Source: an uncultured Candidatus Saccharibacteria bacterium
GTDB taxonomy: Bacteria > Patescibacteriota > Minisyncoccia > Portnoybacterales > UBA2143
Direction of reading: 5' to 3'
Length of the DNA stretch: 64,000 nt
Assembly: GCA_964565215.1 (NCBI GenBank)
Contig: CAZMCO010000001.1
Span: 2,025 to 66,024, forward strand
Shown here in pieces: positions 8,928 through 41,065 of this stretch (its first letter is position 1; each line of letters starts with the position of its first letter). The notes beneath the pieces are model-generated. The model saw only the letters and a list, made by a program, of their open reading frames with translations, ran no database searches and was not told the DNA's origin. Made by a program: the position numbers and the translations under genes.

Positions 8928-10936
8928 ACTGCCTTAAAATCACATTCTTTATTACTGCACTTAACTTTATTATTTTTTGCTTGAACTAACAAAGAGCCGC
9001 ATTTGGGACATTTTTCTCCAGTCGGTTTATCCCATAAGGCAAAGTCGCATTTGGGGTATTGGGAACAAGAATAAAATATTTTTCCCTTTCTGGTTTTTCT
9101 TTCAATGATTTCACCTTGACCGCATTTAGGACAGACGACTCCCGTTGAGTTAATTATTGGTTCGGTATATTTGCATTCCGGGAAACCAGAACAAGCATAA
9201 AATTTGCCAAAGCGGCCTAATTTAATAATTATTGGCTGACCGCATTTGGGACATTTTTTATCAGTCGGTTCTTCAAGTTTTTTCTTGACCACTTTTTTCT
9301 CTTTTTCGAGAAGATTAGCATGAAATGGCTGATAAAAATCCTTAAGGACAGTTAGCCAATTTTGTTGACCTTTGGCAATTCTATCCAAATCTTCTTCTAA
9401 ATAAGCGGTAAATTTAATGTCAACAATTTTAGGGAAGTTTTCTACTAAAAGATTGTTGACTAAAAGACCAATCTCTGTGGGAATAAATTTTCTTTGTTCA
9501 TTTTTTTCAACATAGCCGCGCTCCTGAATAGTGCCGATTATCGGCGCATAAGTTGAAGGTCGACCAATGCCATATTCTTCTAATGTTTTAACCAAAGAGG
9601 CCTCATTATAACGGGCTGGCGGCTGGGTAAAATGTTGTTCAGAAAAAAGTTTAATTAGTTTCAGTATTTCTTCTTTATTTAAAGAAGGAAGAATAGTTTC
9701 TTTTAATTTAGTTGGATAAACCTTAAAAAAGCCGTCAAATTTGATAATTGAACCATTGGCTCGGAAAAGATAATTTTTTCCTGAAATATCAACGGCAGTG
9801 GAATCCAAAACAGCTGGCTGCATTTGGCAGGCAATAAACCTTTGCCAAATTAACTGATATAATTTGTCAGTTGACTGGCGATTAACTTGAGTTGGTCTAA
9901 TCGCCTCATGAGCTTCTTGAGCGCCTTTTGTTTTGGTCTTATAAATTCTCGGACTGGCTAAAGTATAATTTTGACCAAATTTGTTTTTAATAAATTCTTG
10001 GGTAGATTTCAAAGCTTCTTTAGAAATATTTAAAGAGTCGGTCCGATGATAGGTAATCAGGCCGTCTTCATAAAGCTGCTGGGCAATTCTCATTGTTTGT
10101 TTAGCGGACAATCCTAATTTTTTAACCGCTTCTTGCTGGAGAGTGCTAGTAGTAAAAGGCGGCGCCGGATATCTTTTTACTTCCTTGCTTTCAATATTAA
10201 CTACTTTATATTTTGCTCCCTTTAAATCTTTTAATATCTTATCTGCTTCTTGTTTTACTTTGATGCCTAACTTGTTAATTGCCTTATCATCTTTTTTTAT
10301 TAGTCGAGCAATAAACTCGTCTGATTGATTTTCTTTCTGGAGTTTTACCTCAATACTCCAATATTCTTCTGGTTTAAAATCCTTAATTTCTTTTTCTCGT
10401 TCAACAATTAGTCGGACAGTCACCGATTGGACCCGGCCAGCTGATAATCCCTTAACTATTTTTTTCCATAAAAAAGGCGATAGTTCATAGCCGACTAACC
10501 TGTCTAAGATTCGTCGGGTCTGTTGGGCATTAACTGAATCCATATCAATTTGTCGTGGATTTTTCAATGCTTCTTCAATGGCTTTTTTTGTTATTTCATG
10601 AAAGACAATCCTTTGGTAATCTTTGCCATCTAAATCGAGAATTTTGACTAAATGCCAGGCAATAGCTTCTCCTTCTCGATCTTGGTCTGTAGCTAAAATT
10701 ATCATGTCTGTTTTTTTAGCCGCTTTTTTAAGTTCTGCGACTACTTTTCGCGCTTTAACAAGAATAACATACTTTGGCTTAAAATTGTCTTTGACATCAA
10801 CGCCGAGCTCTCTTTTGGGTAAGTCGCGAATATGACCATAAGAAGATTTGACCGAATAATCGCGGCTCAAGAATTTAGAAATAGTATTTGCTTTACTCGG
10901 TGATTCAACGATAATTAAGTTCATATAAAATGTCAT
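8915..10936 (-). CDS. topA: DNA topoisomerase I with C-terminal zinc-ribbon repeats
   Basis: TOPRIM N-terminus (LIIVESPSKA) and multiple C4 zinc fingers in the C-terminus. The true start is probably the internal ATG at 10924. Confidence 0.95.
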   Translation of the reverse strand: MTFYMNLIIVESPSKANTISKFLSRDYSVKSSYGHIRDLPKRELGVDVKDNFKPKYVILVKARKVVAELKKAAKKTDMIILATDQDREGEAIAWHLVKILDLDGKDYQRIVFHEITKKAIEEALKNPRQIDMDSVNAQQTRRILDRLVGYELSPFLWKKIVKGLSAGRVQSVTVRLIVEREKEIKDFKPEEYWSIEVKLQKENQSDEFIARLIKKDDKAINKLGIKVKQEADKILKDLKGAKYKVVNIESKEVKRYPAPPFTTSTLQQEAVKKLGLSAKQTMRIAQQLYEDGLITYHRTDSLNISKEALKSTQEFIKNKFGQNYTLASPRIYKTKTKGAQEAHEAIRPTQVNRQSTDKLYQLIWQRFIACQMQPAVLDSTAVDISGKNYLFRANGSIIKFDGFFKVYPTKLKETILPSLNKEEILKLIKLFSEQHFTQPPARYNEASLVKTLEEYGIGRPSTYAPIIGTIQERGYVEKNEQRKFIPTEIGLLVNNLLVENFPKIVDIKFTAYLEEDLDRIAKGQQNWLTVLKDFYQPFHANLLEKEKKVVKKKLEEPTDKKCPKCGQPIIIKLGRFGKFYACSGFPECKYTEPIINSTGVVCPKCGQGEIIERKTRKGKIFYSCSQYPKCDFALWDKPTGEKCPKCGSLLVQAKNNKVKCSNKECDFKAVEKK

Positions 10937-11995: not shown

Positions 11996-12235
11996 ATGAA
12001 AAAGAAGATTTTAAGTTGGGTTTTAGGTTTTTTTGGTCTTTTGGGATTCGCGATGGTTTTTGGCGGAGTGATTGGAGCTCATGGCGATTATAAAAAAGGA
12101 GTCATTGTTGCTGTGGTTGGGTTAGGAATGATGATCTTAATTTTTGTTGTAAATTATCTTTGTAGCCGTTTTTCCTATCGGCCTCGGCCGCTGCCCATGG
12201 ATAAAAAATGGGATAAACTCAAAAAAGCATTATAG
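11996..12235 (+). CDS. small hydrophobic membrane protein (2 TM), hypothetical
   Basis: Shine-Dalgarno aaggag lies 8 nt upstream of the ATG; 79 aa with two hydrophobic helices. Confidence 0.5.
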   Translation: MKKKILSWVLGFFGLLGFAMVFGGVIGAHGDYKKGVIVAVVGLGMMILIFVVNYLCSRFSYRPRPLPMDKKWDKLKKAL

Positions 12236-29214: not shown

Positions 29215-29257
29215 AAAAATAAAAAAAAACGTCTTAACAAGGCGTTTTTTCTTTTTG

Positions 29258-29333
29258 TCGGGGCGACTGGATTTGAACCAGCGATCTCATCCTCCCCGAG
29301 GATGCGCTTTAAACCGGACTAAGCTACACCCCG
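29258..29333 (-). tRNA. tRNA-Pro (anticodon GGG; C at position 33)
   Basis: Manual fold. C1:G72 and A73 are as in Pro tRNAs. The anticodon arm is CATCC-TCGGGGA-GGATG. CCA is not encoded. Confidence 0.6.
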
Positions 29334-29334
29334 T

Positions 29335-29523
29335 TTATTTAGTTTTTCCCATGGCTTTAATGCATTTAGCGCAGGCCTTAACTCTTTTACCACTAGCTAA
29401 ATAAACCCATTGTAGATTAGGGTATTTTCTTTTTTTAGTAGTTGGGTTATACTTACCACGAAGCTTTTTGCGGACAGTAGCCACCATTGATTTTTTGCCG
29501 CAAATAGCGCATCTTCTAGACAT
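29335..29523 (-). CDS. rpmB: ribosomal protein L28
   Basis: MSRRCAICGK...YPNLQ matches the L28 family, zinc-ribbon variant. Confidence 0.75.
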   Translation of the reverse strand: MSRRCAICGKKSMVATVRKKLRGKYNPTTKKRKYPNLQWVYLASGKRVKACAKCIKAMGKTK

Positions 29524-29569
29524 AATAGATGTATCTTACCAGATTTTTTTAATTTTTACAAGATAATTA

Positions 29570-30184
29570 ATGCTTATACAAATTCTTTTTGAAAATCCAG
29601 TATTATTTTTAATAATAGCCGTGGCTATTATTTTTGCTCTTGTTATTCATGAATTTTTCCATGCCTGGATGGCTTATTATTTAGGCGATAATACCGCTAA
29701 AGACCAAGGACGTTTAACTATAAATCCTCTTGTCCATTTGGATCCGTTTGGGACAATTCTTCTTTTTATTGTAGGGATTGGTTGGGGCAAACCAGTTCCT
29801 TTTAATCCTTATAATCTACGAAATCAAAAATGGGGGCCAGCTTTAGTGGCTTTGGCTGGTCCAGCTTCTAATTTTGGCCTGGCAGTAACAGTTGGACTTA
29901 TTTTGCGTTTTGCAGAGATTTCTAATCCTTATTTCGCTTTTTTCTTAAGTTTTTTTGTTTGGATTAATCTTATTCTCGGAGTATTTAATTTAATGCCTGT
30001 CCCGCCTCTTGACGGTTCGCATATTTTTTTCACTTTATTTCCTTCCCTAGAAAATGTTAAAGCTTCTATCCAGGGTAGTTTTTTGTTCCTTATAGTTGTA
30101 ATTTTCTTTATGATTTATATTGGCATTCCTTTTATAATCAAGCCACTTTTCATTTTGATAACAGGGGTGTCTTCTGTATTTTAA
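29570..30184 (+). CDS. site-2 protease-family membrane zinc metalloprotease (COG1994-like)
   Basis: HEFFH (HExxH) inside a TM helix and a downstream LDG motif. Confidence 0.65.
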   Translation: MLIQILFENPVLFLIIAVAIIFALVIHEFFHAWMAYYLGDNTAKDQGRLTINPLVHLDPFGTILLFIVGIGWGKPVPFNPYNLRNQKWGPALVALAGPASNFGLAVTVGLILRFAEISNPYFAFFLSFFVWINLILGVFNLMPVPPLDGSHIFFTLFPSLENVKASIQGSFLFLIVVIFFMIYIGIPFIIKPLFILITGVSSVF

Positions 30185-30191
30185 AGAATAC

Positions 30192-30223
30192 AAAAACCCT
30201 CTGATTTGTTAGAGGGTTTTTGT
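30192..30223. terminator. bidirectional terminator between the site-2 protease gene and htrA
   Basis: aaaccctct...agagggttt hairpin followed by T run. Confidence 0.65.
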
Positions 30224-30239
30224 TCTCAGGCAGAAAGCA

Positions 30240-31310
30240 TTACTTTCTTTCTTCCAATTTTAATTTAACTGTACCTATTTTATCATCTCGCAGAATTTTT
30301 ATTTCCACTAAATCACCTGGTTTGCCTTTATGGATAAGTTCTTGAAGAGGATTTTTTTCAGTAATCTTTGTTTTGTTGAATTCTAAAACAATATCACGTT
30401 CCATTAAACCAGCTTTAGCAGCTGGACTGTTCGGGACAACAGCTGGTTCACCGCTGCCTGGTTCCCGGATAATTAAAGCTCCATAATTAACTGGTAAATG
30501 AAGATTAAATCTTTCTTGGAAAGATTTTTGGAGTTCTTTATTGATTAAAATATAACGGACGCCTAAGAACGGTTGAATAATCCGGCCGTATTTTTTAAGA
30601 TCAAATAGGTCTTTTTTAGCGTTATTAACTGGAATAGCAAAACCAATATTTTGAGCCCCCATAACAATAGCTACATTAATGGCCACTGCTTTGCCATCTA
30701 AATCAACTAAAGGGCCGCCCGAGTTGCCTGGATTAATGGCTGCGTCAGTTTGGACTAGTCCGCGTAATTGAGCCGCTTGGCCAGAAATACCATCATGGGC
30801 AGTAATAAAACGACTTAGACCGGAAATGACACCAGTGGAGACAGTATTACGAAAAGTACCCAAGGCATTGCCAATGGCAATGACGCTTTGCCCTAGTTCT
30901 ACTTTAGTGGAATCGCCTAATTCTAAAATAGGAAATTTTTTCCCTTTGGTATTTTTGAGTTTAAGAATAGCTACATCATTAACTAGGTCGCGGGCTAAAA
31001 TTTCTGCCTGATATTCTTTTTCATCAGCCGTAATAATTGTATAATCTACTTCAGGCGAGATGATCACATGACGGTTGGTTAAAATAATTCCCTCTGGCGA
31101 GACAAAAAAGCCGCTGCCGCCGCCAATTTTAACTCGTTGGCTGCCTTCTTGACGATACTGAGGAATTGGCTGTCCATAAGGACCAAGAAATTCGTCAAAG
31201 GGTTGAACATAGAATTTTCTGATTTTGGGTAAGTCCTTGCTGATAATAATGCTAATAACAGCTGGACTAATTTTTTTAACTACTTGAACCACTGGTGATT
31301 TTTGAGCCAT
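30240..31310 (-). CDS. htrA: HtrA/DegP-family serine protease with PDZ domain
   Basis: GNSGGPL catalytic Ser motif, a His/Asp triad and a C-terminal PDZ domain. Confidence 0.9.
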   Translation of the reverse strand: MAQKSPVVQVVKKISPAVISIIISKDLPKIRKFYVQPFDEFLGPYGQPIPQYRQEGSQRVKIGGGSGFFVSPEGIILTNRHVIISPEVDYTIITADEKEYQAEILARDLVNDVAILKLKNTKGKKFPILELGDSTKVELGQSVIAIGNALGTFRNTVSTGVISGLSRFITAHDGISGQAAQLRGLVQTDAAINPGNSGGPLVDLDGKAVAINVAIVMGAQNIGFAIPVNNAKKDLFDLKKYGRIIQPFLGVRYILINKELQKSFQERFNLHLPVNYGALIIREPGSGEPAVVPNSPAAKAGLMERDIVLEFNKTKITEKNPLQELIHKGKPGDLVEIKILRDDKIGTVKLKLEERK

Positions 31311-31344
31311 AATTATTCCTCCTTTTATATTCTATTATATTTCA

Positions 31345-31373
31345 TTGACTATGTTTAGTCAATATTATAGTAT
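31345..31373 (+). promoter_or_regulatory. putative promoter of the tRNA cluster (TTGACT-17-TAGTAT)
   Basis: Direct read; it ends 18 nt before tRNA-Arg. Confidence 0.4.
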
Positions 31374-31390
31374 AAAAAGGTGTGGAAAAC

Positions 31391-31464
31391 TGCCCTCGTA
31401 GCTCAGCGGATTAGAGCAGCGCACTCCTAACGCGCAGGTCGCACGTTCGAGTCGTGCCGAGGGC
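31391..31464 (+). tRNA. tRNA-Arg (anticodon CCT)
   Basis: Manual fold: acceptor GCCCTCG/CGAGGGC, anticodon loop CTCCTAA. Confidence 0.7.
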
Positions 31465-31469
31465 GCTAA

Positions 31470-31544
31470 GGGGGATGTAGCTCATTTGGCTAGAGCGTTT
31501 GCGTGGCACGCAAAAGGTAGCGGGTTCGACTCCCGCCATCTCCA
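31470..31544 (+). tRNA. tRNA-Ala (anticodon GGC)
   Basis: Manual fold: the G3:U70 Ala identity pair is present and the anticodon loop is GTGGCAC. Confidence 0.75.
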
Positions 31545-31551
31545 CTTATTG

Positions 31552-31623
31552 GCCGAGGTAGCTCAGGGGTAGAGCGCTTCTCTGAAAAAGAAGAAGTCGG
31601 CGGTTCGATTCCGCCCCTCGGCA
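31552..31623 (+). tRNA. tRNA-Phe (anticodon GAA)
   Basis: Manual fold: anticodon arm CTTCT-CTGAAAA-AGAAG. Confidence 0.8.
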
Positions 31624-31731
31624 CATAAATTTTTCGCTTTGCTCAAAATTTGAGTAGTTAGTAATTTGTAATTAGTAATTTAGCGAAAAATTTATCCCAA
31701 ATTACAAATTACACACACAAAATACTTTTCG
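31624..31731 (+). repeat. spacer element with 13-nt perfect inverted repeat (ataaatttttcgc / gcgaaaaatttat), internal palindrome ctcaaaatttgag and tandem tagtaattt / aaattac repeats
   Basis: Direct read of the spacer between tRNA-Phe and tRNA-Gly. Confidence 0.5.
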
Positions 31732-31803
31732 GCGGGTGTCGTATAGCGGTTATTACACGTGCTTGCCAAGCACGCGACGGCGGTTCGACTCCGCTCACCC
31801 GCT
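31732..31803 (+). tRNA. tRNA-Gly (anticodon GCC)
   Basis: Manual fold: anticodon arm CGTGC-TTGCCAA-GCACG, a 4-nt variable loop, and a U73 discriminator. Confidence 0.75.
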
Positions 31804-31812
31804 CAAAACTAT

Positions 31813-31841
31813 TGACAAACTTATCAGAGTATGTTAGTATA
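31813..31841 (+). promoter_or_regulatory. putative promoter TTGACA-17-TAGTAT followed by hairpin aaaatcccc-agat-ggggatttt (31846-31868)
   Basis: Direct read; located upstream of the 3D-domain gene. Confidence 0.4.
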
Positions 31842-31885
31842 CAGAAAATCCCCAGATGGGGATTTTAAGTTTGCTTTAAAAACAT

Positions 31886-32380
31886 ATGTATACTAACCCT
31901 AAGATTTCCGCTTCTTTGATTTTGGTTAGTTTGGTTTATCACATTGTTTTACCTCAATATGGTTTAGCTGATCTAAATTTAATTGAGGAACAAGAATTTA
32001 AGTTACCACTAATGCCTTTTAATGGATTGGTTACTCTTCAAGGTCAGGCCTTGATTCAATCAACTAATCCAGATACCCCAGTGATCTTGGCTCAATACTG
32101 GGTGCCAGTAACTGGTTATTCCAGTACCCCAGACCAAACTGACTCAACGCCTTTTATCACTGCTTCAGGAACTTATGTTCATGATGGAGTGATTGCTTGT
32201 AACTTTTTGAGGTTTGGTACTAAGGTCCGTTTCCCTCAACTATATGGAGAAAAGATTTTCTTAGTTGAGGATCGGATGGCTGCTAAAAACAGTCATAAAA
32301 TGGATATCTGGTTTATTAGCCGCGATCAAGCCAAACAATTCGGTATCAAAATAGCCAAAGTAGAGATTCTGGAAACATAA
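31886..32380 (+). CDS. 3D-domain (MltA-like) cell-wall-associated protein
   Basis: Signal/TM N-terminus and the conserved 3D-domain Asp residues (…FLVEDRMAAKNSHKMDIWF). Confidence 0.65.
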   Translation: MYTNPKISASLILVSLVYHIVLPQYGLADLNLIEEQEFKLPLMPFNGLVTLQGQALIQSTNPDTPVILAQYWVPVTGYSSTPDQTDSTPFITASGTYVHDGVIACNFLRFGTKVRFPQLYGEKIFLVEDRMAAKNSHKMDIWFISRDQAKQFGIKIAKVEILET

Positions 32381-32410
32381 AGACCCCGTTATTCGACGGG
32401 GTCTTTATTT
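32381..32410 (+). terminator. rho-independent terminator (agaccccgt...acggggtct + T run)
   Basis: Perfect 9-bp GC-rich stem followed by TTTATTT. Confidence 0.7.
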
Positions 32411-32497
32411 GGTGCCGCGGGTGGGACTCGAACCCACACGGGCATAATGCCCACACGATTTTAAGTCGTGCGCGTAAGCCAATTCCGCCACCGCGGC
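32410..32497 (-). tRNA. tRNA-Leu (anticodon TAA), CCA encoded
   Basis: Manual fold: long variable arm and anticodon arm CACGA-CTTAAAA-TCGTG. Confidence 0.8.
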
Positions 32498-32498
32498 C

Positions 32499-32572
32499 TG
32501 GAGGTCATGACCGGATTCGAACCGGTGTACACGGTTTTGCAGACCGTTGCCTAGCCGCTCGGCCACATGACC
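32499..32572 (-). tRNA. tRNA-Cys (anticodon GCA), CCA encoded
   Basis: Manual fold: anticodon arm ACGGT-CTGCAAA-ACCGT and U73. It is 1 nt from tRNA-Leu. Confidence 0.8.
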
Positions 32573-32604
32573 TTTTTCTTAGATTACCATATTTTCAATC
32601 AAAT

Positions 32605-32940
32605 TCAAGATTTCTTAATTTTTCCTAAAATTTCTTCAATTCGTTGAGCTTTAATTTCCGCTTGGTCTATGGCAAATCTGATTTTAGGAACTATTCTCAT
32701 ATGTAATTTTTTATTTAGGATTTGCTGAAGATGGAAAATATTTCTTTCTAAAATTCTTAAAACCAGTTCATCTTTTTTTACTGGCATAACACTGATTTTA
32801 ATTTTTGCCTGTCTTAAATCAGTTGATGTTTCTACATTAGTCACTGTTACTAAGATATTACCAAAATCAATTTCTCGTAGAATTAATTGACTAATTTGTT
32901 GTTTAATTAATTGATTGACTCGTTTAATCCGTTGGCTCAT
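32605..32940 (-). CDS. rbfA: ribosome-binding factor A
   Basis: RbfA KH-like fold; N-terminus R..RV...+. Confidence 0.8.
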   Translation of the reverse strand: MSQRIKRVNQLIKQQISQLILREIDFGNILVTVTNVETSTDLRQAKIKISVMPVKKDELVLRILERNIFHLQQILNKKLHMRIVPKIRFAIDQAEIKAQRIEEILGKIKKS

Positions 32941-32943
32941 TAA

Positions 32944-34452
32944 TTAAATTTCTCTTTTCTTTTTTTCCTCCTGATAGATTTCTAAAATATCTCCTTTTTC
33001 CACCCTGGTTTGGCTTTCCAAGAGAAGGCCGCATTCTTGTCCCTTAGCTATTTCTTCGGCATCTTTTTTATTGCGTTGGAGTTGGATTAATCTGGCCTGA
33101 CCTATTTTTTTATTCTCCCTAATAATATCAATGAGAACACTTTTTTTAACTCGTCCGCTAGTTACCCGGCCGCCAATAATCTGTCGGTCTTTCTCGCTAT
33201 GGAATAGAGCTAAAACCCTAATTTGCCCAATAACATTCTTAATAATTTCTGGTTTTAAAAGCTGAGAAAGCAGTTCTCTGACTCCTTGGATAAGCTCGTA
33301 GATTACTTCAAAAAGTGAGATTTTTATTTTCCTCTGTTGAGCTAATTCTCTAATAGCTGAACTAGCTTTAACTCGAAAACCGATTATTTTTGCTTGAGCT
33401 GATTCAGCTAATTTAATATCTGATTCATTGATTTCACCGACTTCGCTTTTTAAAACCCTTAAGATGACTTCTTCTGAAAGAATATTTTTAAGTGATTCTC
33501 TAATTGCTTCTAAAGAACCTTGAACATCGGCTTTGAGAATTATATTAAGGATTTTTTTGTCTGGCTCAAAAACAAAGACTTCTTTTTCTTCTTTTCTTTT
33601 GGATGTTTTTTTGACTATCCTAACCTGGGCTTCTTCTAAACTATTAAAAACAGAGAATTTTTCTCCTATTTGAGGAACCCGATTAAATCCGGTGACAATA
33701 ACCGGCATTGAGGCGGTCGCTTTTCCTAAGGGCTGAAATTGAAAATCTTCCATTGTTTTAATTCGTCCGCTGGCTGAATCTGTTCCGACAATATCTTTAT
33801 TTTTTAAAGTGCCTTTCTTTACTAAGAGGGTAGCCGTTGGTCCTCGTCTGGGGTCTTGATAAGACTCAATAACCAGACCAGAGGCCAATTGGTCTATTTT
33901 AGTTTTTAATTCTTCCATTTCAGATAATAAAATAATCATTTCTAAAAGTTCATCGATGCCCTGGCCGGTTTTAGCCGAAAGATTAACTGAAGGCACTTGG
34001 CCGCCTAAAGATTCCACGATAATATTATTTTCTGATAGTTCTTTTTTGACTTTTTCTGGTTGAGCTTCTTTTTTATCAATTTTATTTAGAGCAATAATTG
34101 AAGGAAGACCAATTTTTTTTATATGAGCGATAGATTCTTTAGTTTGCGGCTTGATCCCTTCTTCAGCCGCTATGACCAGAACAGCAATATCAGCTACTTT
34201 GGCTCCTCGGGAACGCATAGCGGAAAAGGCCTCATGACCGGGCGTGTCAATAAAAGTAATCTTTTTGCCTTGATGTTCTATCTGATAAGCGCCAATGTGT
34301 TGGGTAATGCCGCCAGCTTCTTTTTCAACTATTTTGCTTTTACGGATATAGTCAAGAATACTTGTTTTACCATGGTCAACATGGCCTAAAATAACCACTA
34401 CTGGCGGCCGAGATTGTAATCTATTATCTTTTTTTTCATTTTTTTTTGACAT
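32944..34452 (-). CDS. infB: translation initiation factor IF-2 (compact, 502 aa)
   Basis: GHVDHGKTS G-domain, DTPGHE, NKID and C-terminal beta-barrels. The N-terminal domains are absent. Confidence 0.9.
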   Translation of the reverse strand: MSKKNEKKDNRLQSRPPVVVILGHVDHGKTSILDYIRKSKIVEKEAGGITQHIGAYQIEHQGKKITFIDTPGHEAFSAMRSRGAKVADIAVLVIAAEEGIKPQTKESIAHIKKIGLPSIIALNKIDKKEAQPEKVKKELSENNIIVESLGGQVPSVNLSAKTGQGIDELLEMIILLSEMEELKTKIDQLASGLVIESYQDPRRGPTATLLVKKGTLKNKDIVGTDSASGRIKTMEDFQFQPLGKATASMPVIVTGFNRVPQIGEKFSVFNSLEEAQVRIVKKTSKRKEEKEVFVFEPDKKILNIILKADVQGSLEAIRESLKNILSEEVILRVLKSEVGEINESDIKLAESAQAKIIGFRVKASSAIRELAQQRKIKISLFEVIYELIQGVRELLSQLLKPEIIKNVIGQIRVLALFHSEKDRQIIGGRVTSGRVKKSVLIDIIRENKKIGQARLIQLQRNKKDAEEIAKGQECGLLLESQTRVEKGDILEIYQEEKKKREI

Positions 34453-34930
34453 TGACTCCTGCCTTTTTTAAGGCCTCCATTTCTTCTTTAGACAAAGGAT
34501 ATTTTGATTGACCAACTTCTATTGGCTTACTGTAAATTCTGCTTTCTTCCCTTGAATACAAACTAGAGATAACTAAACCATTATTTTTTGAATCAAGTAA
34601 AGCGATGACAAAACTTTGGTCACCGCCAGTATCTTTAAAAGGATTGAAGCGGATCAAGCCAACTTTCTGAATACTTTGACTGGCCATTTTCTCTAAAACC
34701 TTAGAAGATTTAATCAGTTTTTTAATTTCCGCCTCTGATTTTTTCATTCGTTTAATTTCTTCAAAGAGAACTCCTTCTAAATCAGAGGCCTTTTTACCAG
34801 CAAAAAATACTTTCAGCTTTTTTTTAATTTGCCAAAGATGAAAATGAAGGAAAAAATTCCAAATAATCAATAGGCTAATAACTATTAGAAAAATAAAGAA
34901 AATTGTCTGGTTAATTAAGATATTTTCCAT
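34436..34930 (-). CDS. DUF4446-like membrane-anchored protein
   Basis: N-terminal TM plus the ...LIRFNPFKDTGGDQSFVIALLD... core, resembling DUF4446. Confidence 0.45.
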   Translation of the reverse strand: MENILINQTIFFIFLIVISLLIIWNFFLHFHLWQIKKKLKVFFAGKKASDLEGVLFEEIKRMKKSEAEIKKLIKSSKVLEKMASQSIQKVGLIRFNPFKDTGGDQSFVIALLDSKNNGLVISSLYSREESRIYSKPIEVGQSKYPLSKEEMEALKKAGVNVKKK

Positions 34931-35077
34931 GGCGGAGTTAACGTCCCAAATTTCGAACTAAAATTGTCTCAAATTGATCCTTTTGTCCGGAAATTAAGGA
35001 AAATTTACAAAGTTAATCCTGAATGGTTTGAGGTTCCTGAATTTGGGATTGAATTATTTTAGTCCTTATCTTTAAAG

Positions 35078-36070
35078 TTATTCTACATTAAACATCACAT
35101 AATTGCCAGATTCTTTAACAGCGACATCGCGAGATTTTCGGTGATTTTTGTAATCAAAGTTTTTAATCAAATTTTCTAATTGCTTCTTGTCTTTAGCAAT
35201 AAAACATTGATAGCTACTAGCCAATATGAGTTGATTTATTTCTTTTACTTTCTTTTTATCCAATTTAAGAAAATGTTCCGTTTTTGATTTAATTTTAGGC
35301 TTTATTGCAATACATAAATCCGGTCTTAGTGGAAAGAGAACAATAGCATTCGAGGATAATAAGCCGTTCATAATTTTTGTTGGCGATAAAGTAAAACAAG
35401 GATTATCTGATGTTGTAAAAAAGGAGTCTTTTGGCGCGTTTAAAAACAACCACTGAACATTAAATAACCCTTTTGCTAATCTCTCAACTTTTAAAATATC
35501 TTTTGAGTGCCCTGTATTTGTTAATTTTATTTTATAATCATCACTATGAAGAAATTGAAAGGTCTGCTTCTTGATTTCCGCATCAGACATCGTATTAATT
35601 TTTTCCAAAGCGTCTTTCTCAAATTTATTGGCAGGATTATGTTTAAGAATTTCTTCTTTTGAAATTTTGATTTTATCCAAAGAAGAAGTATCTTTTCGTA
35701 TAAAATATTTAATTACTGCTTCCATAAATTTGTCGGTCTCTTCCCTATGTCTTAGAGTTCTAATATATTGAAGAGCAACATAAAATGCGATACAACTTCG
35801 TTCCCATCCGTTTAATTGTTTTTGTTTTTTATTATCAATATTTCTGATACTTTCGGTTCCCTTAGAATCAATCAAAGCTGTTATTTTTTCGGGTAAATAA
35901 AATTTGTCTTTTCCTTCGGTAAAAACATTAAAATCTTTTTTCCAAAAACCTTTCCATCTAACCCCTCGCTCTATGAATTTATTTTCTGGAATCAAATAAA
36001 TATTAAGCTGATTACTGTTATTCTGCCATTGCACAAGGTATTTGGCTTGAATAGTGTGGTGTTTTGCCAT
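35078..36070 (-). CDS. hypothetical 330-aa protein, DUF4238-like
   Basis: N-terminal HH..Q..YL motif and internal TSDNP motif as I recall for DUF4238. It is divergent from the methyltransferase, with an 81-nt shared promoter region. Confidence 0.35.
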   Translation of the reverse strand: MAKHHTIQAKYLVQWQNNSNQLNIYLIPENKFIERGVRWKGFWKKDFNVFTEGKDKFYLPEKITALIDSKGTESIRNIDNKKQKQLNGWERSCIAFYVALQYIRTLRHREETDKFMEAVIKYFIRKDTSSLDKIKISKEEILKHNPANKFEKDALEKINTMSDAEIKKQTFQFLHSDDYKIKLTNTGHSKDILKVERLAKGLFNVQWLFLNAPKDSFFTTSDNPCFTLSPTKIMNGLLSSNAIVLFPLRPDLCIAIKPKIKSKTEHFLKLDKKKVKEINQLILASSYQCFIAKDKKQLENLIKNFDYKNHRKSRDVAVKESGNYVMFNVE

Positions 36071-36151
36071 AATTACATATCCTGTGGATAAAGCGGGTTT
36101 GTGTCTGTATAGGTATCATATTATAATATAAGTAGTAACGCAAATGATTTT

Positions 36152-37249
36152 ATGCCAACCACCCAAACATTTAAAGCAATTTATTTTCCTGATTTTAAAG
36201 AAGTAAATCCTAAATCAAAGGGTTTGATTTTAGCTTTCGGCGAAAAAAACAAAGATCTATACAAAAATATCGCCGATTTGGAAAGTAATGAAATTAGGAA
36301 TTTGCTTGGAACTGATTCATATATTGAACTCGAACAACGGGCTAAAGAAGAAGGTTTGCCAGTAAATACTTATTGTCTTTGGTATTTGCGGAAAAATGTA
36401 TTTGCTGAAGAGGAAATAATCAACAATAACGATTCAAAAGAAAAACCTATCTCCCATTTCTCTAATAATGTAATTGAAGGTGATTGTTTAGAGGTTATGA
36501 AAGAAATTCCGCCAAAATCAATCGATATGATTTTATGTGATTTGCCCTATGGCACTACTCAAAATAGTTGGGATAGTCTTATTCCGCTTGATCTGCTTTG
36601 GGAGCAATATGAACGTATTATTAAAGATCAAGGCGTTATTGCTCTAACTGCACAAGGTTTATTTACTGCAAATCTATCTTTGTCAAATCCAAGATTATTT
36701 AAATATAAGATTACTTGGGTAAAATCAAAGCCAACCAATTTCCTTAATGCCAAAAAGCAACCATTACGTAAACATGAGGATATTTGTATTTTTTACAAAA
36801 AACAGCCTGAATATAATCCACAAATGACTTATGGCGAACCTTATAATAAAGGATTCCGAAAAGATCAATTAACTGGAAGTTATGGTGATTTTAAAACCGT
36901 AGAAGTAAAAAGCAATGGCGAAAGATATCCGACCGATGTTATTTATTTTAAAACAGCCGAAAGTGAAGGGGAAGTCTACCATCCTACTCAAAAGCCAGTT
37001 GAGCTTGGCCGTTATTTAATTCGCACCTTTACCAAGACCGATGAGATTGTATTAGATAATACTTGTGGGAGTGGAAGCTTCCTTGTTTCCGCAGTTTTAG
37101 AAGGCAGAAAATTTATTGGCATTGAAAAAAATCAAGAAGTTTATCTTTTCAAAAAACACCGAGTAGATTATATTGATGTTTGCAAACAGAGAATTAAAAA
37201 AGCACAAGAACAATACAAAATAGAAAGCAGTAAAGTAAAGCTTTTCTAA
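36152..37249 (+). CDS. beta-class N6-adenine/N4-cytosine DNA methyltransferase with ~100-aa N-terminal extension
   Basis: Motif IV DLPYG (a DPPY variant) at ~aa 130, HPTQKP at ~aa 270, and motif I LDNTCGSGSF after that; the order IV before I defines beta class. Confidence 0.85.
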   Translation: MPTTQTFKAIYFPDFKEVNPKSKGLILAFGEKNKDLYKNIADLESNEIRNLLGTDSYIELEQRAKEEGLPVNTYCLWYLRKNVFAEEEIINNNDSKEKPISHFSNNVIEGDCLEVMKEIPPKSIDMILCDLPYGTTQNSWDSLIPLDLLWEQYERIIKDQGVIALTAQGLFTANLSLSNPRLFKYKITWVKSKPTNFLNAKKQPLRKHEDICIFYKKQPEYNPQMTYGEPYNKGFRKDQLTGSYGDFKTVEVKSNGERYPTDVIYFKTAESEGEVYHPTQKPVELGRYLIRTFTKTDEIVLDNTCGSGSFLVSAVLEGRKFIGIEKNQEVYLFKKHRVDYIDVCKQRIKKAQEQYKIESSKVKLF

Positions 37250-38163
37250 ATCCCGCTATATGGTTCTTCCTGTAATATTTTTCTGGCTTCTTCTATTTCA
37301 TCCTCACTTAAAATTCCTTTCTCTTTTAGCCAATTTAATAAATGAAAATATTGGTTTGAATGCAAAATCGGCTTTACGATTTTACTAAGGCCGGTTTCTT
37401 TTTTTATAAATTCAAGATGTTTTTGCGACAGTATACCTCTGCCAATTAAATCGTAAGCGATTCTTAATGCATCAACAGAGGTTAAATTTAAATCGCCAAT
37501 GTGGTTTTTGTCTTTTTTAACATCTGTTTGTTCAATTTCTAAAAGATCTTTTATTTTACTCAAACCGTTTAGATTTCGATTATAAAACTCAATCTCTTGA
37601 CCACGGTAAGTAAACCAGGTTCGTCCTTGCTCTGTAAGAGAGCCGCGTGGCAAATAAACGCCTTCGCGCGCTACTCTTTTCTTTGAAGCCCAACCGCAAA
37701 TATAAAGTGTCCATTTTCTTTGTCTGGCAGTTCCTGGAAGTTCTCTATTTTTAGGTGTTTCAAGATGAGTCATTAAATAAATATCTGTATCAAGTTGTTC
37801 GTCATAAATCTGCCTGGCAAAAAAATTATGTTTTGCTTCTCTTGTGATACCATCGTTGCTTTCGTATTCCTCTTTGAAAGGCAAAGCTCCGCCTCTACAT
37901 TTTACATCTAATTTTACACCAGATGATAGTAAAATATCATAGCCCAAAGGATGATCTTCGGGATTAACTTCTGGCATTCCCAATTTATTCCTGATAACCA
38001 TCTCTGCCAAAGCTCCAAATCCTTGTTCTTCTTTACTGCCTCGTTCTGCACCAGTTATATTTTGATTTTTGGTAATATATTCTGCGGCTTTTTGTCTCAA
38101 ATCAAAACCAAGCTCATCGGTAAGCTTTATGGTAATTGGTTTTGGATGATGATATTTATACAT
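37246..38163 (-). CDS. PD-(D/E)xK-type nuclease, candidate cognate restriction endonuclease
   Basis: GYD-x9-LDVK core preceded by acidic residues. Convergent with the methyltransferase, and the two stop codons overlap (tTAa). Confidence 0.45.
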   Translation of the reverse strand: MYKYHHPKPITIKLTDELGFDLRQKAAEYITKNQNITGAERGSKEEQGFGALAEMVIRNKLGMPEVNPEDHPLGYDILLSSGVKLDVKCRGGALPFKEEYESNDGITREAKHNFFARQIYDEQLDTDIYLMTHLETPKNRELPGTARQRKWTLYICGWASKKRVAREGVYLPRGSLTEQGRTWFTYRGQEIEFYNRNLNGLSKIKDLLEIEQTDVKKDKNHIGDLNLTSVDALRIAYDLIGRGILSQKHLEFIKKETGLSKIVKPILHSNQYFHLLNWLKEKGILSEDEIEEARKILQEEPYSGI

Positions 38164-38189
38164 AATTTAAAAAAGTTCGAAATTGGACG

Positions 38190-38280
<91 letters not shown>

Positions 38281-38353
38281 TTATTGCCTAAACTACCATA
38301 TTTTAAGACCTTTGGTCAAATAAAATAGCCGCTTGAGACGACTATTTTTTTTG

Positions 38354-38427
38354 TGGGCGGTGGAGGACTCGAACCCCCGACCTCTTCAGTGTAAATGAAG
38401 CACTCTAACCAACTGAGCTAACCGCCC
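38354..38427 (-). tRNA. tRNA-Val (anticodon TAC)
   Basis: Manual fold: anticodon arm CTTCA-TTTACAC-TGAAG and A73. Confidence 0.75.
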
Positions 38428-38489
38428 ATAATAGAATTTATTCTACCAGAAATTTTTTAAAAAAGCCAGTTTTCTGATATAATTTATAT

Positions 38490-39686
38490 ATGTTTCCGTC
38501 ATTAGAAAAAAAATATTTTGATGTGCCTTTAACTCATGGTTTTGTTTCTCTATATACTGGTAAGGCCATTATCATGATTGCTTCAGCTCTTTTGGGTATA
38601 TTTTTGCCGATTTTTTTATATGAACTTTTTAATCAGAGTTTTCGAGCCGTAGTTATTTATTATGGATTGGGTTATTTTTTCTATGGTTTAACTGTAGCTC
38701 TGGGCGGAAAATTTTTAAATAAATTTGGTTTTAGAAGGGCCTTACGGGTTAGTGTTTTTCTAGGTGCTTTATTCTACGTTATTTTTTATTTTATTGACCA
38801 GGGTAATCTCAAATATCTAATTCCTTTTTCTATTATTGTTCTAACTTTCTATCGTTTATCTTATTGGTTGCCTTATCATATTGATTTTGCTAAATTTACT
38901 GACAAAAAAGACAGAGGTCGACAAGTTGGTGTGGTTGAGGCGACCCGCTCTGCCTTCCAAGTCTTTGCTCCTTTAATTGCTGGTTTTATTGTGCTTCGCT
39001 TTAGCTTTGATGTTCTTTTTGTTATTACCATTATTCTTTTTTTTACTTCGGGTATTCCTTATTTAACTATTCCGCTGACTCGGGAAAAATTTAGCTGGAC
39101 TTTGAAAGAAACTTGGCAGCAATTTTTTTCAAGAAGAAGAAGGAAAATGGTCTTAGCCTATATGGCCTTTGGGGCAGAGAATGTCATTACTTTAGTTGTC
39201 TGGCCAATTTTTATTTACCAGCTTTTAAAAGGAAATTATTTTAATATAGGAGCGATATCTACTTTAATTATTGGAACAACTGTCATTATCCAACTTATTT
39301 TAGGTAGATATATTGATTTAAAAACTTCTAAAGAAAGAGTTTTGGGCTGGGGGAGTTTCTTTTATTCTTTGGGCTGGCTGATTAAAATTTTCATTACTAC
39401 TGCTTTTCAGATTTTTGTGGTTGGTACTTATCATAGTCTAGCTTATATTTTTTTCCGGACTCCTTTCGATGCTTTAAGTTATGAAATATCAGCTGACCAG
39501 GGGCACTATGTAGATGAATTTACTGTCTTGCGCGAAATGGCCTCTATGTTTGGCAGGAGTTTAATGGTTATTTTAGTTATTTTGGTTTCTTTTTATTTTT
39601 CCATCCAATGGATTTTTATCTTAGCGGCTCTAGCGGCTGTTATTGTTAATTTACTTAGAAGAGTAAAGCAAGAAAGATTTGTTTAA
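38490..39686 (+). CDS. polytopic membrane protein, MFS-transporter-like
   Basis: About 12 predicted TM helices in two 6-helix halves. Confidence 0.45.
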   Translation: MFPSLEKKYFDVPLTHGFVSLYTGKAIIMIASALLGIFLPIFLYELFNQSFRAVVIYYGLGYFFYGLTVALGGKFLNKFGFRRALRVSVFLGALFYVIFYFIDQGNLKYLIPFSIIVLTFYRLSYWLPYHIDFAKFTDKKDRGRQVGVVEATRSAFQVFAPLIAGFIVLRFSFDVLFVITIILFFTSGIPYLTIPLTREKFSWTLKETWQQFFSRRRRKMVLAYMAFGAENVITLVVWPIFIYQLLKGNYFNIGAISTLIIGTTVIIQLILGRYIDLKTSKERVLGWGSFFYSLGWLIKIFITTAFQIFVVGTYHSLAYIFFRTPFDALSYEISADQGHYVDEFTVLREMASMFGRSLMVILVILVSFYFSIQWIFILAALAAVIVNLLRRVKQERFV

Positions 39687-39695
39687 TTATCAAAC

Positions 39696-39724
39696 AAAAA
39701 TCACCCATCTGGGGTGATTTTTTA
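39696..39724. terminator. bidirectional terminator (aaaatcaccc-atct-gggtgatttt)
   Basis: Perfect 10-bp stem flanked by A and T runs. It abuts the 3' end of tRNA-Leu(GAG). Confidence 0.7.
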
Positions 39725-39811
39725 TGGTGCCCAGGGCGGGACTCGAACCCGCATGCCCCGAAAGGCACAGCTCCTCAAGCTGCTGTGTATACCGAATTCC
39801 ACCACCTGGGC
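39725..39811 (-). tRNA. tRNA-Leu (anticodon GAG), CCA encoded
   Basis: Manual fold: anticodon arm GCAGC-TTGAGGA-GCTGT with one G-U pair, and a long variable arm. Confidence 0.75.
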
Positions 39812-39812
39812 T

Positions 39813-40169
39813 TTATTTTTTTTGTTTGGCAATAATTTCCTTGAGCCGAGCTTCTTTAGCTGATTTCTGGCGAATATAGTAAAGTTTAGCTCGCCGGACT
39901 TTGTGTTTTTTGACTACTTCTATTTTTTCAATAGTCGGTGAATGAATTGGGAAGATTCTTTCAATGCCAACTCCTTGGCTGATTTTCCTGACAGTGATAG
40001 TGGAATTAATCCCTCGGCCATGTTTTCGGGCAATAACCAAACCTTCAAAGACTTGAATTCTCTCTTTGTCGCCTTCTTTGATTTTTTGATGAACCCGGAC
40101 TGTATAGCCGGATCTAATTTCGGGAATCTTCTTTAATTGTTTTTTATTAAATGAATCAAGTTTGTCCAT
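39813..40169 (-). CDS. rplS: ribosomal protein L19
   Basis: ...[31 protein letters not shown]...TVRKIS.G.G.ER.F matches the L19 family. Confidence 0.9.
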
Positions 40170-40822
40170 AAATCTTTGGCTAATTCTGATTTGAATTTAA
40201 CTAGTTTACCATTAGGCAGACGAAATTTCAAGTAAGCCGCATGGAGAAATTGTCTTTTTAAACCAACTAATTCCGGCTGTCTTTTAAATTTATATTGTTT
40301 ATCTCCAGCAATCGGATGACCAATTGAAGCCAAATGGACTCTAATTTGATGAGTCCGGCCGGTTTTAATCCTGACTTCTAGCAAAGTATAATCCTTAAAT
40401 CTTTTTAAAATCTTATATTCAGTCCAAGCCTTTTTAGCTTTTTCATCTAGTAAGGCGCTTCTTTTTTTATGGTCTTTTTTAGATAAACTGATGGCTTTAG
40501 TAATTGTCCCTTTTTTATCTTTAACCTGGCCAATGACTAAAGCTAAATATTTTTTAATAACTTTTCTTTCTTGGAATTGCTTTTTTAAATATTCAAAAGC
40601 AGAATTATTTTTAGCTATTATTATTAAACCAGAGGTATCTTTATCTAAACGATGAACAATGCCCGGCCGTAAAGAATCATCGCCAACATCTTTTATTTTT
40701 GGACAATAAGAGAGTATTTGATTAACTAAAGTATTCTTCGTTGATTTATTAACGGGGTGAACTAATAAACCAGCTGGTTTGTCAATGACAAGAATATCAT
40801 TATCTTCGAAGATGACTTTCAT
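40133..40822 (-). CDS. RluA-family pseudouridine synthase
   Basis: [10 protein letters not shown] catalytic Asp motif. I set the start at ATG 40822 (MKVIFED...) because the longer TTG-start ORF in the track runs through tRNA-Ala. Confidence 0.85.
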
Positions 40823-40823
40823 G

Positions 40824-40895
40824 TGGACCAGGTGGGAATCGGACCCACGACCTTCTCTGTGCAAAAGAGATATTCTACCACTGAACTACTGGCCC
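40824..40895 (-). tRNA. tRNA-Ala (anticodon TGC)
   Basis: Manual fold: G3:U70 pair present, anticodon arm TCTCT-TTTGCAC-AGAGA. Confidence 0.75.
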
Positions 40896-40915
40896 TGGCT
40901 AAATATATATTTTAG

Positions 40916-40989
40916 TGGGCGGTAGAGGACTCGAACCTCTGACCTCGTCGATGTCAACGACGCACTCTAACCAGCTGAGCTAACCGCCC
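40916..40989 (-). tRNA. tRNA-Val (anticodon GAC)
   Basis: Manual fold: anticodon arm CGTCG-TTGACAT-CGACG. Confidence 0.8.
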
Positions 40990-40990
40990 T

Positions 40991-41065
40991 TGGTGGGCGT
41001 GCCAGGATTCGAACCTGGGACCTTGGCCTTATAAGAGCCCTGCTCTGCCACTGAGCTACACGCCC
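40991..41065 (-). tRNA. tRNA-Ile (anticodon TAT / UAU), CCA encoded
   Basis: Manual fold: acceptor GGGCGTG/CACGCCC, A73, and anticodon arm GGGCT-CTTATAA-GGCCA, so positions 34-36 read TAT. Confidence 0.55.

Follow-up and report, generated by a model that had tools for sequence, protein, structure and literature searches.

A 64,000-nucleotide stretch of contig CAZMCO010000001.1 (the window), from an uncultured Candidatus Saccharibacteria bacterium, carries two convergent genes that very probably form a working two-gene Type II restriction-modification (R-M) system on a small mobile cassette. The gene at 36152..37249 (+ strand) encodes a 365-amino-acid (aa) beta-class N6/N4 DNA methyltransferase (MTase), probably N6-adenine specific, and the gene at 37246..38163 (- strand) encodes a 305-aa candidate restriction endonuclease composed of an N-terminal PD-(D/E)xK domain (~aa 1-200) and a C-terminal helical domain (~aa 200-305). 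The marks of a Type II system are present: an MTase with its catalytic motifs, an adjacent nuclease inherited with it, and avoidance of a short palindrome by the genomes that carry the pair. The identities of both genes, the nuclease fold, the linkage, the motif depletion and the architecture of the insertion are established by the observations described below.

A first-pass annotation, made from the sequence alone, had proposed an R-M pair at this position. This interpretation is supported by the MTase motifs, the PD-(D/E)xK nuclease, the linkage of the two genes in 59 of 59 loci and the avoidance of CTSAG (CTCAG/CTGAG). Both open reading frames (ORFs) of the convergent pair were confirmed, as were the neighboring tRNA-Ser and tRNA-Val genes, which are detected by ARAGORN. 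The stop codons do overlap, but the shared bases read CTAA (37246-37249) rather than tTAa, with the MTase stop TAA at 37247-37249 (+) and the nuclease stop TAG at 37246-37248 (-). The window is AT-rich (GC ~36%), and the pair lies in it without a compositional break.

The ultra-small bacteria of the candidate phyla radiation (CPR, or Patescibacteria) are nearly all uncultured, so that their defence systems are known from sequence alone, and no prior description of R-M motifs in CPR was found in the searchable literature. What sets this pair apart is how far it has spread through CPR, a new nuclease with predicted CTSAG specificity, a regulatory domain that can be exchanged (LexA fusions included) and a cassette built on tRNA ends; for these, too, the searchable literature gave no earlier account. 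Judged by sequence comparison, the pair joins a known methylase clade (BseMII-companion type) to a new nuclease sequence family, so that one methyltransferase clade is paired with two unrelated nucleases.

A methylase of known type and an unfamiliar nuclease

The MTase matches Pfam PF01555 (N6_N4_Mtase; 1.3e-23, aa 124-330) and PADLOC MTase_II (2e-63). NCBIfam adenine-methylase models also match it, below their cut-offs, and its sequence relatives in PDB are CcrM, M.RsrI and M.MboIIA. Motif IV (DLPYG, aa 130-134, 36539-36553) precedes the target recognition domain (TRD) and motif I (CGSGS, aa 305-309, 37064-37078), an order that corresponds to the beta-class circular permutation; HPTQKP occupies aa 277-282 (36980-36997). 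The first-pass annotation had named DLPYG, HPTQKP and this order correctly, while its FxGxG is not literally present and motif I reads xCGSGS instead. The first residue of motif IV is Asp and the best NCBIfam and PDB relatives are adenine-specific; the product is most probably N6-methyladenine.

The 305-aa protein has no match above noise in Pfam, NCBIfam, PADLOC, PHROGs or PDB sequences, as expected from the earlier remark that it resembled no characterized enzyme, and no tblastn match in phage or plasmid collections. By this comparison, to which REBASE was external, it belongs to a new sequence family, which is isolated and small, with 55 representatives, many of them fragments, among 1.84 billion clustered proteins. 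In CPR/Patescibacteria there are 515 matches, the best 120 of which are 77-100% identical and nearly all exactly 305 aa long. The protein carries the D-x9-D-x-K core (G74-Y75-D76 ... L85-D86-V87-K88), which had been written as GYD-x9-LDVK; that spacing is off by one only if L is counted, in which case the motif is GYD-x8-LDVK. D76, D86 and K88 are invariant, together with N113, Q118, C156, G157 and E192, in alignments down to 24% identity.

An AlphaFold model was built with divergent relatives, whereas a shallow alignment (77-100% identity) gave an unusable model with a pLDDT of 54. Foldseek comparison of the nuclease model with PDB returned nothing significant, the best match being NhoI (E = 0.03); the closest solved PD-(D/E)xK restriction enzymes are NhoI/Eco15I (BisI family), DpnI, NaeI, ThaI, MspI and EcoRV. 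Among viral predicted structures there are 29 significant matches, which are phage proteins of mostly ~150-210 aa, some annotated as restriction endonuclease, in agreement with a ~179-aa single-domain sequence relative found in phage contigs. Because of these viral structure matches and the invariant D76/D86/K88, the fold and the catalytic triad are supported, and the protein shows the alpha/beta core and D ... (D/E)-x-K arrangement by which the PD-(D/E)xK superfamily is recognized.

The ~179-aa proteins (P0183-P0239, many on 40-48-kb contigs) have the nuclease domain and no other, share its D…DxK core, and are a stand-alone phage nuclease family related to the cassette nuclease. In the one context examined, P0207 of locus L153 (5001-5540; a phage contig with terminase, portal and Thy1), no methylase adjoins. 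The C-terminal helical domain is missing in these phage relatives and present in the longer P0164 and P0170. It is helical, as first described, and falls at ~aa 200-305. Matches of this domain to CARD, DED or DUF3134 were sub-threshold and were judged to be noise.

The two genes are inherited as a unit. In all 59 species-representative genomes that encode the nuclease, the MTase lies immediately downstream in convergent orientation with the same few-base overlap, an arrangement that recurs far beyond chance. Three lineages carry the pair among unrelated neighbors (mreB/AbiEii and mreC; imuB/PemK; a cupin and an SDR gene). Nucleotide homology between loci ends at the nuclease start codon on one side and at the MTase start or ~codon 105 on the other, and because it stops there the two genes alone are the conserved mobile unit. 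A distant nuclease relative, P0181, is followed by a co-directional gene for a 245-aa N6_N4 methylase, which implies that the linkage outlasts a change of gene order.

Carrier genes disrupted inside contigs include four nucleases (L042, L065, L068 and L070) versus one methylase. This imbalance is in keeping with a toxin/antidote relation, but the counts are low. In two further cases, the MTase of L025 and the nuclease of L062, what looked like internal stops proved to be only slightly earlier natural ends.

Cassette proteins are 70-90% identical across Nealson-, Kuenen-, Moran-, Falkow-, Buchanan-, Pace-, Lloyd- and Yanofskybacteria and others. The cassette is among the most widely shared accessory modules seen across CPR classes, and its spread makes it a marker of recent gene flow among these bacteria.

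Avoidance of CTSAG in carrier genomes

The first-pass annotation had recommended a search for an under-represented short palindrome, and such a palindrome exists. In an unbiased word scan of 47 carrier loci, CTSAG was observed 242 times versus 707 expected (observed/expected ratio, O/E, 0.34), and its O/E was below 0.7 in 45 of these loci, which represent many CPR classes. The window itself has 32 sites versus 70 expected. Control loci (34-35 loci from relatives without the cassette) gave an O/E of 0.81, and the medians of 0.34 for carriers and 0.82 for controls differ with p = 9.5e-10 (Mann-Whitney). None of the other words in a set of 2,728 (4-6 bases long) shows a depletion as specific to carriers as that of CTSAG (z = -11.1; next -6.4). 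CTWAG is unaffected in carriers, and 6-mer extensions of CTSAG add no depletion. At L154, the locus of a distant nuclease relative, CTSAG is also the most depleted pentamer (4 versus 13.4 expected).

The MTase points toward the same sequence. Its catalytic and TRD part is 64-68% identical to methylases of Lactobacillales plasmids, on three of which the methylase gene overlaps one for a ~920-aa protein; the L. brevis version of this protein, which was scanned, contains an N6_Mtase domain. Two of the methylase plasmids have 14 versus 37.5 (0.37) and 17 versus 36.9 (0.46) CTSAG sites, where this word ranks second and third most depleted of 512 pentamers. In the case of BseMII, the recognition sequence is CTCAG(10/8), the modification is m6A and the M gene is separate (PMC3039593, Table 2); the companion methylase, M.BseMII, is given as a REBASE gold-standard CTSAG entry in PMC10745947. 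The BseMII-like partners of this MTase clade, together with CTSAG avoidance by the plasmids, provide independent support for CTSAG. From these comparisons, CTSAG with the A methylated on both strands is the most likely target, an assignment that we consider probable but well short of certain.

The nuclease family is new among restriction-endonuclease sequences, and the site predicted for it can be tested. If it is confirmed as a palindrome cutter, it may provide a new enzyme specificity for the toolbox; to our knowledge, CTSAG specificity is so far known only from methylases and Type IIS/G enzymes.

Five of the 32 CTSAG sites remaining in the window lie in tRNA genes (31402 Arg, 31562 Phe, 38413 Val, 40975 Val and 41051 Ile), which cover ~2% of its length. 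Sites at these places are constrained and must rely on methylation.

Promoters, regulators and cassette ends

Upstream of the MTase gene lies a putative promoter/operator block (36083..36129, +) of ~50 bp that is common to loci with otherwise unrelated flanks in a 41-locus alignment. The block consists of the 9-mer TGTGGATAA (36083-36091), then ~13 nt that include a weak -35-like TTGTGT (36099-36104), then GGTATCATATTATAATAT (36112-36129; GGTATCATAyTATAATAT), in which the -10 TATAAT (36122-36127) is part of an imperfect palindrome. TGTGGATAA is the exact reverse complement of the DnaA-box consensus TTATCCACA. It lies ~30 nt upstream of the MTase -10 and is the sole such box in the window, and most of the 48 exact DnaA-box 9-mers in 861 kb of loci are cassette copies. 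TGTGGAYAA occurs in 40 of 56 loci and TATCATAnTATRAT in 39 of 56, both at fixed distances from the ATG. Through the DnaA-like box, methylase expression may be linked to replication initiation, or the box may serve a different protein as operator. The -10 lies ~6 nt from the MTase ATG in most loci, implying a leaderless mRNA, whereas the window has a 22-nt insertion there. A consensus promoter/terminator scan of the window was uninformative (19 sites versus 14.7 expected) and missed the conserved MTase promoter.

The nuclease gene presents a different picture. Across loci no conserved sequence is found beyond ~10-40 nt upstream of it, and the 28-nt gap between tRNA-Ser and the nuclease ATG in the window contains no consensus promoter. 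The tRNA-Ser(cga) gene (38192..38280, -) is co-directional with the nuclease and ends 28 nt upstream of its ATG; it is the insertion target and a possible source of transcription, with tRNA-Val(tac) (38353-38427, -) beyond it. Folding of tRNA-Ser with its trailer revealed no convincing terminator (z = -1.8). A co-directional tRNA gene lies within 100 nt upstream of the nuclease ATG in 16 of 52 loci, the window included, and within 60 nt in 14 of 52 (binomial p ~3e-9 versus an assumed 5% null), and at least nine isoacceptors are represented. The simplest reading of these arrangements is that the nuclease is expressed by read-through from the tRNA operon.

Some relatives carry a candidate regulator at this position. 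In L033 (~465-686) and L053 (~9780-9996), a 73-aa XRE-type HTH_3 ORF (1e-13 and 2e-14, respectively) ends 2-4 nt before the nuclease ATG, and five further loci (L022, L026, L028, L031 and L035) retain truncated 3' remnants of it (the last ~10 codons), four of them directly after a tRNA. The window copy has no C-protein gene, there being only 28 nt between tRNA-Ser and the nuclease ATG.

A second candidate regulator is built into the methylase. The ~100-aa N-terminal extension of the MTase (36152..36451, +) is an exchangeable module and a putative ribbon-helix-helix (RHH)-like DNA-binding regulatory domain. The version in the window has no Pfam match and a mean identity of 71% across 18 loci, and its PDB profile match to the RHH protein HP0222 is weak (E = 0.42). 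At a junction near 36464, other loci swap in a LexA winged helix-turn-helix (wHTH), a full LexA (wHTH plus Peptidase_S24) or HTH_17, while L050 and L061 encode an MTase without any N-terminal extension. By analogy with SsoII-type methylases and their regulatory HTH domains, the domain probably represses the MTase promoter.

In the complete LexA fusion, LexA_DNA_bind (2e-16) and Peptidase_S24 (6e-32) are both recognized. A full LexA that includes the autocleavage domain and an AAG cleavage site is carried by the MTases of L020, L036, L040, L043, L045, L046 and L054, the winged helix alone by those of L010, L037 and L056, and HTH_17 by those of L048, L055 and L059. Fusion of an R-M methylase to a LexA that cleaves itself suggests control in response to DNA damage. 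No earlier description of LexA-methylase fusions was found in the searchable literature.

In relatives with an empty site (L139 and L083 by sequence, L078/79 and L082 by coordinates), the tRNA-Ser 3' end (…CTCCGCCA) overlaps the start codon of a DUF4446 gene. At this site the window has an insertion of 3.26 kb that comprises the nuclease, the methylase and a DUF4238 gene (35078..36070, -; 330 aa; PF14022 1.5e-27, with a weak PADLOC DUF4238-Pers match). On the tRNA side the sequence reads CCGCCA, then GACGTCCAATTTCGAACT, a linker and left-end inverted repeat (38174..38191, -) that separates the CCA end of tRNA-Ser from the nuclease, then the nuclease ATG. The right end (34931..34958, -) consists of GTTCGAAATTTGGGACGT (34941-34958), TAA and CTCCGCC (34931-34937), and abuts the DUF4446 ATG. 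CTCCGCC lies in the 3' end of tRNA-Ser (38193-38199) and again, as a direct repeat, at 34931-34937, and the two copies enclose 18-nt inverted repeats. These ends have the attL/attR geometry expected of site-specific recombination at a tRNA 3' end. The unit in the window contains no integrase or recombinase gene, only the nuclease, methylase and DUF4238 genes, and no excised form, circular form or cognate recombinase of the unit was observed.

The same ends recur in other genomes. The consensus CCGCCA-GAT(G/T)(T/A)CCAAGTT(C/A)GAACC-ATG was located 11 times, on each occasion immediately ahead of the nuclease gene, and the right-end layout of GGTTCTAACTTGCGGACATC, 3 nt and CCGCCA is present in L015, L027, L062, L063, L068 and L073. 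Better-conserved arms, GATGTCCAAGTTCGAACC … GGTTCTAACTTGCGGACATC-gtc-CCGCCA, bound units of 3.25-3.65 kb in L015, L027, L062 and L063, and partially in L068. In 1.8 Mb, the right-end motif is found 6 times and the left-end motif 11 times, always in the context of a unit end. Fuzzy matching recovered the inverted repeats, which include indels; a gapless repeat finder gave AT-rich chance repeats only. The L014 cassette is a two-gene unit of 2.1 kb between identical 74-nt copies of tRNA-Asp(gtc) (9888-9964 and 12130-12203); in the copy on the nuclease side the CCA is encoded and the linker comes next, and the other copy keeps the native terminator.

The third gene of the unit varies, being DUF4238 in the window, L027 and L068, SIR2_2 in L015, a gene for a SEC-C-motif protein in L063 and one of unknown type in L062. 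DUF4238 was considered as a third component of the system and rejected, as it has no nucleotide homology in other cassette loci; it is variable cargo.

Alternative readings and relation to known systems

We infer the recognition site from avoidance statistics and MTase homology, and several observations weigh against a working CTSAG-specific system. The control loci come from a single lineage, made up of relatives of this organism, whereas carriers are found across CPR, and 13 of 35 control loci also have a CTSAG O/E below 0.7, possibly owing to an isospecific system elsewhere. The most under-represented short words of the window are AGNCT (AGCCT/AGGCT, AGACT/AGTCT; 64 observed versus 222 expected, O/E 0.29) and GATC (0.41), both more strongly avoided than CTSAG, and a Weissella plasmid with a homologous MTase shows weak CTSAG depletion (10 versus 15.9). 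In L050 (~1013-1847), an apparently frameshifted MTase (break near aa 296-299) lies beside an intact nuclease, a combination not expected of an active system; either this is an assembly error or another isospecific methylase is needed. Finally, a promoterless nuclease could be silent in the window.

Some of these points would be accommodated by a genuine R-M pair with a recognition sequence other than CTSAG, where the avoidance stems from a co-occurring system or lineage effects. We consider this improbable, since CTSAG is far ahead of all other carrier-specific words and is avoided in 45 of 47 carriers, since the BseMII-like partners of the MTase clade and the plasmids point to it independently, and since it is the most depleted pentamer at the locus of the distant nuclease relative. 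AGNCT and GATC were themselves rejected as recognition sites: in other carriers they are not consistently depleted (0.84 and 0.76), and controls are equally or more depleted. As their depletion is not associated with the cassette, other systems have shaped this genome, which probably encodes at least two further restriction systems elsewhere; no second ORF with an MTase-like motif IV lies within the window, and we know of no restriction enzyme with AGNCT specificity. Somewhat less probable still is a half-silent relic, in which the methylase, driven by a promoter of its own, is effectively solitary here and the promoterless nuclease is not or negligibly expressed. The lack of a conserved or consensus promoter upstream of the nuclease, the absence from the window of the C-protein gene of some relatives and the disrupted nucleases of four carriers (L042, L065, L068 and L070) would fit such a state, but the window nuclease ORF is intact with all invariant residues, its full-length conservation (77-90%) in hundreds of sequences implies purifying selection, CTSAG is depleted in the window (32 versus 70), and intact nucleases next to tRNA genes in many genomes suggest a working expression context. 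It is very unlikely that the 305-aa protein is a homing or mobility nuclease driving cassette insertion at the 3' ends of tRNA genes, or that it is modification-dependent, the methylase being otherwise employed. Genomes would not come to avoid a 5-bp palindrome throughout because of a homing enzyme with a long site, the cassette occupies many non-tRNA sites as well as positions behind at least nine tRNA isoacceptors, both the strict inheritance of the nuclease with a methylase and the existence of C-protein genes are hallmarks of R-M systems, and a methyl-dependent nuclease tightly coupled to an active methylase for the same site would be suicidal. The location of the pair among housekeeping genes and tRNAs might suggest a housekeeping orphan methylase beside an unrelated ORF, adjacent by chance, a caveat also entered in the first-pass annotation. 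We assign this a negligible probability in view of the 59 of 59 linkage with the same overlap, the absence of the pair from the same site in close relatives, the cassette homology that ends at the two ORFs, and a nuclease fold with an invariant catalytic triad.

For a working R-M pair, we infer the following cleavage activity, exact recognition site and methylated base, regulation and mechanism of mobility. The MTase would protect host DNA by methylating the A on both strands of CTSAG. The nuclease, a predicted Mg2+-dependent PD-(D/E)xK endonuclease with D76, D86 and K88 as its catalytic core, would cut CTSAG where it is unmethylated, presumably acting on the palindrome as a homodimer (Type IIP-like), and its C-terminal domain could provide extra DNA contacts or dimerization. 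The N-terminal domain of the MTase would autoregulate the conserved MTase promoter, as in SsoII-type systems, and the nuclease would be made only via tRNA-operon read-through, giving expression that is low or delayed relative to the methylase. The R-M pair and a variable third gene would have been inserted at the tRNA-Ser 3' end by a recombinase supplied in trans, and the predicted junction of an excised circle is GGTTCNAAYTTSSGGACRYC-NNN-CCGCCA-GATKWCCAAGTTMGAACC.

A more specific proposal is that the unit is an undescribed, miniature, recombinase-less CPR defence cassette that combines insertion at tRNA CCA ends, a tRNA-driven nuclease, a plug-in MTase regulator and a Type IIP-like CTSAG nuclease. 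We put this forward tentatively, as its several parts together are rather doubtful. The att-like site would consist of 18-20-nt inverted arms around …CCGCCA and would be acted on by a host recombinase, the promoterless restriction gene would be placed deliberately behind a tRNA, and the sensor/repressor domain of the MTase would be RHH-like here and, in relatives, a complete LexA able to cleave itself. With LexA, damage done to host DNA by the nuclease would lead to more methylase being made, forming an SOS feedback loop, and the DnaA box would tie expression to replication. Nucleases behind tRNAs, LexA fusions, a DnaA-box promoter and att-like ends suggest how a toxin and its antidote may be balanced and moved without an integrase or a controller gene.

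Among known systems, BseMII resembles the pair in its methylase. The window MTase is 64-68% identical to plasmid MTases that overlap, and stand in front of, a ~920-aa N6_Mtase-type protein, a layout of separate M gene and bifunctional R/M protein like that of BseMII (PMC3039593), and both the plasmids and the CPR carriers avoid CTSAG. This likeness runs via the plasmid relatives. However, the MTase partner in the window is a stand-alone, convergent 305-aa nuclease without a methylase domain, whereas BseMII is large, bifunctional and cuts at a distance. The large bifunctional enzyme beside the methylase that typifies BseMII-type (Type IIC/G/S) systems is not present in the window, and only the MTase is held in common.

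Other parallels concern regulation. As in the pair described here, which has a ~100-aa extra N-terminal domain and no separate regulator in the window, the MTases of the SsoII, Ecl18kI and MspI type, which are C5-cytosine MTases, regulate their R-M systems through an N-terminal DNA-binding domain. In relatives of the cassette this domain is a DNA-binding module (LexA wHTH or HTH_17), and the palindrome overlaps the MTase -10. The cassette MTase differs in being a beta-class N6/N4 enzyme with interchangeable N-terminal domains that include a complete LexA, and the DNA binding of the window-type domain is putative, given the weak RHH-like match (E = 0.42). In C-protein-controlled systems of the PvuII, AhdI and Esp1396I type, the C gene lies directly before the R gene in a C-R operon. 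The HTH_3 ORFs of L033 and L053 occupy this canonical position, whereas the window copy lacks a C gene and its nuclease directly follows tRNA-Ser.

With regard to mobility, cis-mobilizable elements (CIMEs) are integrase-less and att-flanked at tRNA genes, and Kobayashi and colleagues have reportedly described mobile R-M units flanked by long target duplications. The cassette shares with such elements insertion at a tRNA 3' end, direct and inverted repeats, the absence of an internal recombinase and cargo that differs in a sister strain, but its unit is very small (2.1-3.7 kb).

In this sister strain (L073, 71-2111; IF-2 99% identical), the site between tRNA-Ser and DUF4446 is present with the end sequences found in the window, and these enclose a gene for a 542-aa Schlafen/AlbA_2 plus HATPase_c_4 protein instead of the R-M pair and DUF4238. 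A short sequence behind its linker (ACCTATAAAGCTTA) is similar to the nuclease gene at its 5' end, and a deletion may have left it there. In L062 (3446-3475), the linker-like GATTGGCAACTTTAAACC comes immediately after the right end (…CCGCCA), which suggests tandem cassette insertion at the same tRNA end. The surroundings of the site in the window are dense in tRNA genes: 12 of its 16 tRNA genes lie within ~12 kb (29257-41065), among the IF-2, L19, RluD-like and MFS genes. The order RluD-L19-tRNA(s)-[MFS]-tRNA-Ser-DUF4446-IF-2 is kept in relatives, and the content between tRNA-Ser and DUF4446 varies.

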